Origin: a virus
Lineage: Duplodnaviria > Heunggongvirae > Uroviricota > Caudoviricetes
Length of the DNA stretch: 6,296 nucleotides
Reading direction: 5' to 3' (one strand)
Virus record (IMG/VR): IMGVR_UViG_2663762839_000014
The notes under the pieces were generated by a model. That model made no database searches. It was given only the letters and a program-made list of their open reading frames with translations, and had not been told where the DNA came from. Shown one piece after another: positions 2,291 through 6,296 of the stretch. Both the position numbers and the translations under genes were made by a program. How positions within the stretch are numbered: the stretch's first letter is position 1; each line of letters starts with the position of its first letter.

Positions 2291-3868
2291 ATGACGGAAA
2301 ACATTCATAAGCATCGCATCCTCATTCTGGACTTCGGTTCTCAGTACACTCAACTGGTTGCGCGCCGCGTGCGTGAGCTGGGTGTTTACTGCGAACTGTG
2401 GGCGTGGGATGTGACAGAAGCACAAATTCGTGACTTCAATCCAAGCGGCATTATTCTTTCCGGCGGCCCGGAAAGTACTACTGAAGAAAACAGCCCGCGT
2501 GCGCCGCAGTATGTCTTTGAAGCAGGCGTACCGGTATTCGGCGTTTGCTATGGCATGCAGACCATGGCAATGCAGTTGGGCGGTCACGTTGAAGCCTCTA
2601 ACGAACGTGAATTTGGCTACGCGCAGGTTGAAGTCGTAAACGACAGCGCACTGGTTCGCGGTATCGAAGATGCGCTGACCGCAGACGGTAAACCGCTGCT
2701 CGATGTCTGGATGAGCCACGGCGATAAAGTTACCGCTATCCCGTCCGACTTCATCACCGTAGCCAGCACCGAAAGCTGCCCGTTTGCCATTATGGCTAAC
2801 GAAGAAAAACGCTTCTATGGCGTACAGTTCCACCCGGAAGTGACTCACACCCGCCAGGGTATGCGCATGCTGGAGCGTTTTGTGCGTGATATCTGCCAGT
2901 GTGAAGCCCTGTGGACGCCAGCGAAAATTATCGACGATGCTGTAGCTCGCATCCGCGAGCAGGTAGGCGACGATAAAGTCATCCTCGGCCTCTCTGGTGG
3001 TGTGGATTCCTCCGTAACCGCAATGCTGCTGCACCGCGCTATCGGTAAAAACCTGACTTGCGTATTCGTCGACAACGGCCTGCTGCGTCTCAACGAAGCA
3101 GAGCAGGTTCTGGATATGTTTGGCGATCACTTTGGTCTGAACATTGTTCACGTTCCGGCAGAAGATCGCTTCCTGTCAGCGCTGGCTGGCGAAAACGATC
3201 CGGAAGCAAAACGTAAAATCATCGGTCGCGTTTTCGTTGAAGTATTCGATGAAGAAGCGCTGAAACTGGAAGACGTGAAGTGGCTGGCACAGGGCACCAT
3301 CTACCCTGACGTTATCGAATCTGCGGCGTCTGCAACCGGTAAAGCACACGTCATCAAATCTCACCACAACGTGGGCGGCCTGCCGAAAGAGATGAAGATG
3401 GGCCTGGTTGAACCGCTGAAAGAGCTGTTCAAAGACGAAGTGCGTAAGATTGGTCTGGAGCTGGGCCTGCCATACGACATGCTCTACCGTCACCCGTTCC
3501 CGGGACCGGGCCTCGGCGTTCGTGTACTGGGCGAAGTGAAGAAAGAGTACTGTGACCTGCTGCGCCGTGCTGATGCCATCTTCATTGAAGAGCTGCGTAA
3601 AGCGGATCTGTACGACAAAGTCAGCCAGGCGTTCACTGTCTTCCTGCCGGTACGTTCTGTTGGCGTAATGGGCGATGGTCGTAAATACGACTGGGTTGTC
3701 TCTCTGCGTGCTGTCGAAACCATCGACTTCATGACCGCACACTGGGCGCACCTGCCGTACGATTTCCTCGGTCGCGTTTCCAACCGCATTATCAATGAAG
3801 TGAACGGTATTTCCCGCGTGGTGTATGACATCAGCGGCAAGCCGCCAGCTACCATTGAGTGGGAATGA
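2291..3868 (+). CDS. guaA: GMP synthase, glutamine-hydrolysing (525 aa)
   Basis: ORF 2291..3868 translates to [41 protein letters not shown]..., ending ...[10 protein letters not shown], matching E. coli GuaA. It contains the glutamine amidotransferase region (GVCYGMQ) and the ATP pyrophosphatase P-loop SGGVDSS. Confidence 0.97.
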
Positions 3869-3916
3869 TTAACAGCTAACTCATAGCAAATCATTCCTAT
3901 TCAGATGCCAACTCAA

Positions 3917-3947
3917 CCCTCTGTTTTTGCAGGGGGTTTTTGTTTTT
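3917..3947 (+). terminator. Rho-independent terminator of the guaBA operon
   Basis: CCCTCTG-tttttg-CAGGGGG forms a 7-bp stem with one G-U pair (3917..3936), followed immediately by TTTTTGTTTTT (3937..3947), about 50 bp after the guaA stop. Confidence 0.75.
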
Positions 3948-4003
3948 ATGTATTCATTTCTATTCACTCTATACCATATTTTTCGGCGGTACAGGTGACG
4001 GTA

Positions 4004-4018
4004 TTACCTTAAAGGTAT
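4004..4018 (+). promoter_or_regulatory. Dyad motif copy a: TTACC-ttAAA-GGTAt, upstream of the integrase stub
   Basis: One of three same-orientation copies of TTACC-nnAAA-GGTA(A); the others are at 4960..4974 and 5340..5354. It lies about 45 bp upstream of the integrase GTG start and overlaps a TATACT -10-like hexamer at 4016..4021. Confidence 0.4.
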
Positions 4019-4060
4019 ACTCTCATGCCGTCATGAAAATGGTTTCTATACGGGTGAATT

Positions 4061-4210
4061 GTGCTTACCGATACAAAATTAAAAAACCTCAAGCCGCAGG
4101 ACAAACTGTACAAAGTCTCCGATCGTGACGGGCTGTATGTGGCTGTGCTTACGTCAGGTACGGTCTCGTTTCGCTATGACTACCGTATCAACGGTCGCCG
4201 CGAAACACTG
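4061..4210 (+). pseudogene. Tyrosine recombinase (P4-family integrase) N-terminal stub, about 50 codons
   Basis: From the GTG at 4061 the translation is LTDTKLKNLKPQDKLYKVSDRDGLYVAVLTSGTVSFRYDYRINGRRETL, the conserved N-terminal arm-binding region of P4-like integrases. After about codon 50 the frame continues as unrelated sequence to a stop at 4276, and no catalytic domain is present in any frame. Confidence 0.7.
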
Positions 4211-4690
4211 GTAGCCGGGCTTCAGCGGGGCACTGTAGGTTTTGTTCTCTATCTTCATTGCCTGCATCACTGCTGACGCCGTGGCGTTGGCTACTTGGTC
4301 GGCAACCATCTTTATGCGTTCTTCCTGCGGGAGCGAGTTTTTAATGTAACTTCCGGTGCGGCGGATCTGAGGAAGAACCTCACCTGTAACCCATTTACGA
4401 AAGCGGTAGGGGATAGTGCCTGGTGTTACTGCATCGCGGCAGCGGAGGATCAGTGTGTAGAGGCCTGACTCGGAGATGATGATCGATTCTTGCTCACCGC
4501 CAGGGGTGTCGGTTGAAGCGACGCCCTTCTCATCATCATCAAGTTTTCGAACAGTATCTCGATGGTTTGCTATGCCTATAGCCCGACAAACATCTGAAGC
4601 GATAAACCATGGCTCACCATTAATGACGATTACTCGTATATCGGCTTGGGATTCGAAAGAAAAAATGGACGTGCTTTTTGTAGCTGTCAT
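4154..4690 (-). CDS. Bro-N domain protein (phage antirepressor-like), 178 aa; C-terminal ~19 codons read antisense through the integrase stub
   Basis: Residues about 10-115 (FSFESQADIRVIVINGEPWFIASDVCRAIGIANHRDTVRKLDDDEKG...IISESGLYTLILRCRDAV...FRKWVTGEVLPQIRRTGSY) match the Bro-N signature. RBS AAGG lies 8 nt upstream of the ATG at 4690. Confidence 0.75.
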   Translation of the reverse strand: MTATKSTSIFSFESQADIRVIVINGEPWFIASDVCRAIGIANHRDTVRKLDDDEKGVASTDTPGGEQESIIISESGLYTLILRCRDAVTPGTIPYRFRKWVTGEVLPQIRRTGSYIKNSLPQEERIKMVADQVANATASAVMQAMKIENKTYSAPLKPGYQCFAATVDTVVIAKRDRT

Positions 4691-4847: not shown

Positions 4848-4867
4848 AAAAAAACCGCTTGCGCGGT
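4848..4867 (-). terminator. Rho-independent terminator on the minus strand
   Basis: On the minus strand, ACCGC-gcaa-GCGGU (5-bp stem, GNRA-type loop; plus 4854..4867) is followed by seven U (plus A-run 4848..4854). Positioned to terminate transcripts coming from the 85-codon ORF or the candidate small RNA. Confidence 0.6.
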
Positions 4868-4886
4868 GAATGCGCCTTTTAGTAAT

Positions 4887-5005: not shown

Positions 5006-5263
5006 TTATATGGTTTGTTTTCGTAATTGTTCGGCACAATAGTCGAGATGTGTTTGCAGATCCTGCATAGACATCTGTGAGCTGGTGACGTAGTTAATCA
5101 GTGCAGTCAGTTCGGCAAGTGGGCCATCGACATTAAATCCATCCTTATCGAGATCCCGGAGTAATTTCATCAAGTGCGATCCCTCCACCAGTGACCTGAC
5201 GCCTCCCGGCGTGTGAATCCTTTCGGTAAATCCGTCTTCCAGTGGATAGTGATACTGCTGCAT
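5006..5263 (-). CDS. Hypothetical 85-aa acidic protein, predicted SOS (LexA)-regulated
   Basis: ORF with ATG at 5263, SD GGAG 8 nt upstream (plus 5272..5275), and a near-consensus LexA box 20-40 bp upstream of the ATG. No family recognised from the sequence MQQYHYPLEDGFTERIHTPGG... Coding status is inferred from the RBS and box context only. Confidence 0.5.
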   Translation of the reverse strand: MQQYHYPLEDGFTERIHTPGGVRSLVEGSHLMKLLRDLDKDGFNVDGPLAELTALINYVTSSQMSMQDLQTHLDYCAEQLRKQTI

Positions 5264-5282: not shown

Positions 5283-5302
5283 AACTGTATATTTATACAG
5301 TA
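5283..5302. promoter_or_regulatory. LexA (SOS) box AACTGTATATTTATACAGTA
   Basis: CTGT-N8-ACAG with an A/T-rich spacer; 18 of 20 positions match the E. coli consensus TACTGTATATATATACAGTA. It lies in the divergent region between the 85-codon ORF (minus) and the tailspike gene (plus), and overlaps a TATAAA -10-like hexamer in the minus orientation. Confidence 0.75.
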
Positions 5303-5354: not shown

Positions 5355-5458
5355 TGTCTATTCGTGTTCACAGTATTTCTATACATATATGGTTTTTAGG
5401 GTAATAGAATAACCAGATGTGCGGCGCAACGGGTGCTGCGACTATCTGGAGATTTAAC

Positions 5459-6296
5459 ATGACGGTCTCAACCGAAATTGACCACAACGAATACACCGGT
5501 AACGGTGTTACAACGATATACCCTTATACCTTTAGGATTTTCCAGAAATCTGATTTAGTAGTGCAGGTTGTTGACCTGAACGAGAACATCACAGAGCTGA
5601 TTCTTGACACTGATTACATAGTTACTGGGCTGGAGGATACAATGGTGGCAATATAATTCTGTCGAAGGCATTGGTTAGCGGTTATCAGATTTCTATATCA
5701 CGAGAGCTTCCGGTTACGCAGGAAACTGATTTGCGTAATCAGGGTAAGTTCTTTGCAGAAGTGCATGAGGATGCTTTTGATAAGCTAACGATGCTGATCC
5801 AGCAGGTTCGAAGTTGGTTTAGCTTGGCGCTGCGCAAGCCGTCAAGTATTGCTAACTGGTACGATGCACTAAATAATTACATCCGTAATCTGAGAGACCC
5901 TAGAGAACCTCAAGATGCAGCCACGAAAAATTATGTTGATACTCTGGCTGTTGGAAATTTCATTCGAACATTACGTGTACCTGAACCTGTCAGGCAGTTC
6001 CCTGATGCAGCAATACGCGCCAACAAGATTCCTGCCTTCGACAGTTCCGGCAATCCGATTGTGGTTTTGCCTCCATCTGGTTCTGCTTCTGACATTATGA
6101 TAGAACTTGCTAAACCAACAGGTGCTGACCATATTGGTACATCATCAGGTGAAACTGTGCAGCATGTAATCGACCGACTTTATCTTCCAAATGATCCCCG
6201 TGGTTATGGCGCACTAACAGAGTCAACAGATAATACCCAAGCGTTCATTCAGGCGATTTATGCTTCACCTAGTGGAATTGTCATAAGGGGAGGTAT
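5459..6296 (+). pseudogene. Phage tailspike / tail-fibre protein, 5' part, interrupted by a -1 frameshift in a G-run at 5627..5629; continues beyond the window
   Basis: From ATG 5459 (SD GGAG 8 nt upstream) the frame reads MTVSTEIDHNEYTGNGVTTIYPYTFRIF...DYIVTG and stops at 5654. The adjacent frame is open from 5614 to the window end (over 225 codons: AGGYNGGNIILSKALVSGYQISISRELPVTQETDLRNQGKFF...). The two frames join if GGG at 5627..5629 was originally GGGG. The last part (PRGYGALTESTDNTQAFIQAI) resembles the start of a pectate-lyase-fold depolymerase domain. Could be a true pseudogene or a homopolymer sequencing error. Confidence 0.7.

Follow-up and report, generated by a model that had tools for sequence, protein, structure and literature searches.

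Programmed or mutational breaks in reading frames have been described in several systems that resemble the locus analyzed here. The lambda G/GT tail assembly chaperones depend on a programmed -1 frameshift, and homopolymer contingency loci undergo phase variation by slipped-strand events. A third comparison is offered by the cryptic prophages of Escherichia coli, which we take to include the K-12 remnants Rac, e14, DLP12 and CPZ-55. With respect to chromosomal position, the closest systems are epsilon15, phiV10 and ZX5, for which both the att core and integration at the 3' end of guaA are known (PMC9782041).

Here, we analyzed a stretch of 6,296 nucleotides (hereafter the window), which is the entire contig CDRI01000453.1 of the E. 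coli draft assembly GCA_000946855.1 (at least 453 contigs). Along this contig, the order is xseA', guaB, guaA, att core, int', 'bro, orf85 and a tailspike gene.

The tailspike gene and its reading frames

As read from the sequence, the tailspike ATG at position 5459 (plus strand) opens a frame of 65 codons that closes with TAA at 5654-5656 (frame A, 5459-5656). A Shine-Dalgarno sequence, GGAG (5448-5451, plus strand), is located 7 nt 5' of this ATG and is the same in homologs. The second frame (frame B) is open from 5614, directly 3' of a TGA at 5611-5613, through the window end at 6296 (227 codons), and overlaps frame A by 43 nt. An earlier note on this DNA had reported two frames overlapping by about 40 nt, the GGG at 5627-5629 and a Shine-Dalgarno sequence belonging to the gene itself, all of which were found in the sequence as described.

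Positions 5440-5760 of the window were aligned with the corresponding regions of the intact E. coli MINF_2E prophage, phage TL-2011b and the E. coli EM06-18-14 prophage. The sole gap against these three intact homologs was one base in the G-run, where the window has GGG (5627-5629, plus strand) and close homologs have GGGG. The window reads ACTGGGCTGGAGG, compared with ACTGGGGCTGGAGG in the two closest homologs and in a 99%-identical metagenome contig (L007); the third homolog, EM06, has GGTG at this position. The one-base gap was therefore seen against four homologs (the three intact ones and L007), and the suspected 1-bp deletion in the G-run was confirmed by alignment to intact homologs. 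Once the base is restored, the two frames join as seamlessly as the earlier note had proposed: the repaired 279 residues are collinear with an intact beta-helix tailspike of 922 amino acids (P0152), with 82% identity and no gaps. The probability that the 221 codons 3' of the shift would be open by chance is (61/64)^221, or approximately 2e-5. Judged from these comparisons, frames A and B are the two halves of one tailspike gene. The 5' fragment (5459-5656, plus strand) comprises codons 1-57, which are authentic, followed by eight out-of-frame codons (LEDTMVAI) and the TAA, whereas codons 58-279 lie in the -1 frame at 5630-6296 (plus strand), from which the gene runs off the contig with about 643 further codons expected.

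We give almost no credence to the idea that these are two unrelated or deliberately split genes, encoding a small N-terminal protein and a separate receptor-binding protein. Splits between anchor and receptor-binding domains are known in some phages, for example the Kayfunavirus CLB_P1 (as cited in PMC10408124). However, every homolog has one continuous protein to which both frames align, which disposes of the case of two unrelated genes that the earlier note had considered, and at the junction frame B offers no start codon preceded by a ribosome-binding site, so that the gene caller resorted to a TTG at 5731. A functional separation of anchor and receptor-binding parts was also rejected, as the break falls at residue 57, inside the anchor domain, which ends at about residue 160-200.

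With regard to identity, the repaired 279 residues belong to PHROG 1640 ('tail protein'), with a single matching stretch over residues 1-238 (E = 8e-148), and residues 1-165 align as one unit with domain 1 of Dpo31, a tailspike of solved structure. A Pfam search of the same 279 residues matched no family, the anchor domain being recognized by PHROGs only; in P0152, the Pfam Beta_helix domain occupies residues 626-698. In DNA comparisons, identity over the first ~540 nt of the gene was 93% with TL-2011b, 82% with phiV10 and 78% with epsilon15. On the basis of these matches, the gene can be assigned to the tailspikes of epsilon15/phiV10-type podoviruses (genus Uetakevirus). The frameshift at codon 57 lies within the N-terminal particle-binding (anchor) domain and away from any domain boundary. 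Compared with Uetakevirus tailspikes, the homologous anchor domain is present and the upstream position is the same (divergent orf85 and bro, in a prophage at guaA), but the single uninterrupted frame of ~650-1060 codons is absent (relatives have 650-1061 codons). Since the frame is broken at codon 57, the window gene would be a pseudogene of the Uetakevirus tailspike family rather than a functional member of it.

The window holds approximately 30% of the gene, the contig ending at codon 279 in the lead-in to the receptor-binding domain. The last 99 residues are 47.5% identical to the beta-helix tailspike of Uetakevirus BUCT554. P0152, which shares 79% identity with the last 100 residues, was the only intact relative of the receptor-binding part and could be recovered solely by an exhaustive HMMER search; a word-indexed protein search with the same 100 residues gave a single match of 98 amino acids. 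An exact 26-mer of the receptor-binding part had no match in IMG/VR, and genome and metagenome collections scanned with a degenerate pattern yielded none either. Thus, as far as sequence similarity indicates, this type of receptor-binding part is rare, with almost nothing close to it apart from P0152.

The earlier note had also considered the placement of the gene, beside an SOS box rather than inside a tail operon, as unusual for a structural gene. This view did not hold, as the layout beside the LexA-type box is the rule in epsilon15/phiV10-like phages. A conserved small gene, orf85 (5006-5263, minus strand; PHROG 450, E = 2e-47), is divergent from the tailspike gene, and its homolog was found divergently upstream of the tailspike in 72 of the 77 IMG/VR relatives, with a median start-to-start distance of 199 bp (196 bp in the window). 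All three annotated relatives (3/3) have the order bro (minus), orf85 (minus), tailspike (plus), two holins, endolysin and Rz, and the surroundings of P0152 show the same bro-orf85-tailspike-lysis layout. The box itself, a LexA-box-like palindrome CTGTATATTTATACAG at 5285-5300 in the orf85-tailspike intergenic region (one match versus 0.07 expected), is perfect and precedes the divergent orf85-bro genes by 22 nt. It is kept at the same place in the close relatives L001-L003 and L007 and is present in 33 of 57 Uetakevirus-like loci in IMG/VR, which suggests an SOS-controlled route of antirepressor induction in epsilon15/phiV10-like phages. In the ZX5 paper on the repressor and antirepressor, LexA is not mentioned.

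Two further observations concern the neighborhood of the gene. Orf85 and bro are 316 bp apart, and at 4854-4875 this interval contains a GC-rich hairpin with flanking T-runs that resembles a bidirectional terminator; should it terminate transcription, the two genes may be separate transcription units. In addition, in L097 (8808-9857), L098 and L099, an Acyl_transf_3 gene of opposite orientation separates the P0152 gene from the lysis cassette. This gene probably encodes an O-antigen acetylase for serotype conversion, and by analogy an acyl transferase gene may lie beyond the window end in this isolate too.

A gutted prophage at guaA

The region upstream of the tailspike gene begins with an attL core, ATTGAGTGGGAATGATT (3854-3870, plus strand), located at the guaA 3' end; the match is exact, with none expected by chance. 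It is followed by an integrase remnant (4061-4220, plus strand) consisting of the first ~53 codons, that is, the Arm DNA-binding domain (Pfam Arm-DNA-bind_3, E = 1.5e-10), of a P4-type integrase of ~416 amino acids whose intact gene has 1251 nt. Positions 3801-4220 are 96.4% identical to the guaA-int region of strain UTME-3, after which the alignment stops. A Bro-N antirepressor gene (4154-4690, minus strand; Pfam Bro-N, E = 6e-21; PHROG 130, anti-repressor) has lost ~72 C-terminal codons and continues into antisense integrase sequence, giving a fusion ORF of 178 amino acids. The bro remnant is 97.8% identical to TL-2011b bro from position 1979 of L002, the last 215 nt being gone. Hence int' and 'bro are joined tail-to-tail, at a junction (4210-4220) where the integrase alignment ends at 4220 and bro begins at 4210, with an imperfect microhomology, GGTA...GGGC.

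In the intact MINF_2E prophage, the two junction points are ~33.8 kb apart, and the interval holds recombination, immunity and replication genes as well as those for terminase, portal, capsid and ejection proteins. Comparison with this prophage thus indicates that ~34 kb, including all head and tail genes, is gone from the isolate. The att site is kept and the essential excision, replication and virion genes are gone or truncated, as in a defective prophage. With the virion genes deleted, the tailspike gene would therefore be an orphan under no selection. The suggestion in the earlier note that the gene belongs to a rearranged remnant is borne out by the upstream int-bro fusion and the ~34-kb loss, rather than by the placement of the gene, from which it had been argued.

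We also considered why the contig ends where it does. Both the NCBI contig and the contig of an independent Logan assembly (L004/L008) stop at the same base, 6296, inside the tailspike gene. An IS element at this end was rejected, as the last codons before 6296 still match intact P0152 and the last 170 bases of the window had no match in complete E. coli genomes, and an inverted-repeat junction was rejected because the tip is not palindromic. No foreign sequence is present at the tip. A gap in coverage at 6296 seems the likelier cause, since a repeat or IS boundary would normally give assembler-dependent ends and foreign bases at the tip.

Mutation, sequencing error or switch

The GGG deletion allele was absent from 5426 complete E. 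coli genomes and had no exact match in IMG/VR, GTDB representatives or JGI metagenomes, while the intact version of the same 35-mer occurred five times in IMG/VR. Exact look-up among ~15 billion proteins retrieved the 65-residue tailspike product only from the two assemblies of this isolate, and the same was true for the 178-residue int-bro fusion protein. Other lesions were observed in related genes. L007 (ENA ERZ27232824 k141_239313), which is 99% identical and keeps GGGG, has CAG changed to TAG at residue 180 (1565-1567, corresponding to window positions 5996-5998), apparently a second, independent knock-out of the same tailspike allele. Short tailspike ORFs were found in about 6 of 79 IMG/VR relatives. 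Two Logan contigs (P0084 and P0135) are frameshifted elsewhere, ...DPSTP being followed by KMQPLKIML..., with a 1-bp loss in CCT CAA GAT; lesions in prophage tailspikes, or assembly errors, therefore recur. Taken together, the L007 nonsense codon, these other frameshifts and the short ORFs suggest that independent tailspike knock-outs recur.

In our opinion, the frameshift is probably a real mutation that inactivated an orphan gene in a prophage undergoing decay, and we infer that one G is indeed missing from the DNA. It is unlikely, if still worth weighing, that the isolate has GGGG and an intact frame, and that one G was lost from the consensus by a sequencing or assembly error. Homopolymer length errors are the commonest indel artifact, the draft is fragmented (at least 453 contigs) with two Ns in the contig, so that local quality may be modest, the nearest allele (L007) has GGGG, and the deletion allele is a singleton in all collections searched. 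Frame B is moreover fully open over the 221 codons 3' of the shift, and therefore the lesion should be either very recent or an artifact. However, run ERR738831 was also assembled in Logan, with another assembler although probably from the same reads as the deposited assembly, and the result contains both the GGG and the int-bro junction. In the same Logan contig, 274 homopolymer runs of at least three bases in 6.4 kb of housekeeping coding sequence contain no frameshift; as the tailspike gene contains 29 such runs, a random miscall would strike it only ~9% of the time. The difference between G3 and G4 also concerns a short run for systematic miscalls, assuming Illumina reads, and the lesion lies in a gene already useless after the ~34-kb deletion, which is where real mutations accumulate.

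It should be noted that the Logan contig agrees with the window at every base of the tailspike gene, the only three differences lying near the opposite contig end. At positions 54 and 168, the deposited contig has N (A in the window) and the Logan contig has C; the third difference is at 58. These Ns and mismatches indicate lower quality near that contig end.

Functional roles for the G-run, either as a -1 slippery site or as a phase-variable contingency tract, were also raised by the earlier note, and we consider them very improbable. The shift required is indeed -1, within overlapping frames, and near-identical alleles do have G3 (the window) and G4 (L007). But the overlap (5614-5656) reads ACU GGG CUG GAG and offers no X XXY YYZ heptamer, and the RNA at 5620-5720 folds at -21.1 kcal/mol, compared with a shuffle mean of -22.4 (z = +0.38), so neither a slippery heptamer nor RNA structure speaks for recoding. 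The two-frame layout is not conserved, nearly all relatives having a single frame of 650-1061 amino acids, and the virion that a recoded product would join is absent. As for phase variation, known contingency loci have tracts of ~7 or more bases, much longer than the 3-4 bases found here, and the homopolymer itself is not conserved: among the 57 scorable IMG/VR relatives, the G-run has a length of 2 in 23 relatives, 3 in 15, 4 in 11 and 5 in 8. The peptide T/S-G-A-G-G is kept across these 57 relatives, with the G-run synonymously interrupted in most of them. A variable G-run together with a kept peptide implies that it is the protein, rather than the homopolymer, which is under selection.

We also thought of a domesticated module under SOS control, consisting of the LexA box, orf85-bro', the tailspike gene and perhaps the lysis genes, in which the G-run would act as a switch or allow low-level -1 recoding. 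If this were true, the G-run would set the output of free O-antigen depolymerase upon DNA damage. The chance that it is true appears to be extremely small.

Prophage decay and comparison with known systems

Overall, the locus is best explained as an ordinary, recent pseudogene of prophage decay, which is a known kind of thing, and not as a regulatory device. In the order of events that we infer, an epsilon15/phiV10-type (Uetakevirus) prophage would have integrated at the guaA 3' end, and short stretches of microhomology in int and bro would then have undergone illegitimate recombination, which eliminated ~34 kb with the genes for immunity, replication, packaging, head and tail and spared attL, int', 'bro, orf85, the tailspike gene and possibly genes 3' of it. 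As no virion could be built, the tailspike gene would have been left without selection, and a replication slip in ACT GGG GCT may have dropped one G. Translation from 5459 would now yield 57 authentic and eight out-of-frame residues before the stop at 5654-5656, the remainder no longer being translated as tailspike, and presumably no residual function is left.

For annotation, the ORFs at 5459-5656 and 5731-6294 should be regarded as one tailspike pseudogene, and the sequence between guaA and the last base of the contig as a defective Uetakevirus prophage that lacks ~34 kb internally. Although the case matters little outside annotation, it may serve as a small, clean example of prophage decay, in which a large microhomology-mediated deletion is followed by point lesions in orphaned late genes. 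In addition, anyone who mines prophage tailspikes for receptor-binding domains, whether to predict serotypes or to discover enzymes, should check them for such lesions.

Among known systems, lambda G/GT would be resembled by the window in that a tail-related gene has overlapping frames joined by a -1 shift near a G-run. However, the window has no slippery heptamer, no conserved two-frame layout and no stimulatory structure, and its gene is a tailspike, not a chaperone, from a podovirus without that system. Homopolymer contingency loci are similar to the window in that a surface-recognition gene is turned on or off by a change in G-tract length, whereas the window tract has 3-4 bases and is unconserved, and other copies of the gene are knocked out by unrelated lesions.

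The resemblance to Uetakevirus tailspikes (epsilon15 gp20, the phiV10 tail fiber/tailspike, TL-2011b, PAS61 and BUCT554) is closer: the anchor-domain DNA is 78-93% identical, the start context and the divergent orf85 neighbor are the same, and the prophage lies at the guaA 3' end with an identical att core. The window differs from them in the frame broken at codon 57, the deletion of the remaining phage and the rare receptor-binding type. Finally, compared with the K-12 cryptic prophages, the window remnant stems from an epsilon15-like podovirus at guaA, and its deletion and frameshift are private to one isolate and therefore recent. Like those cryptic E. coli prophages, it is fixed in the chromosome by deletion, with a truncated integrase and leftover late genes that accumulate point lesions.
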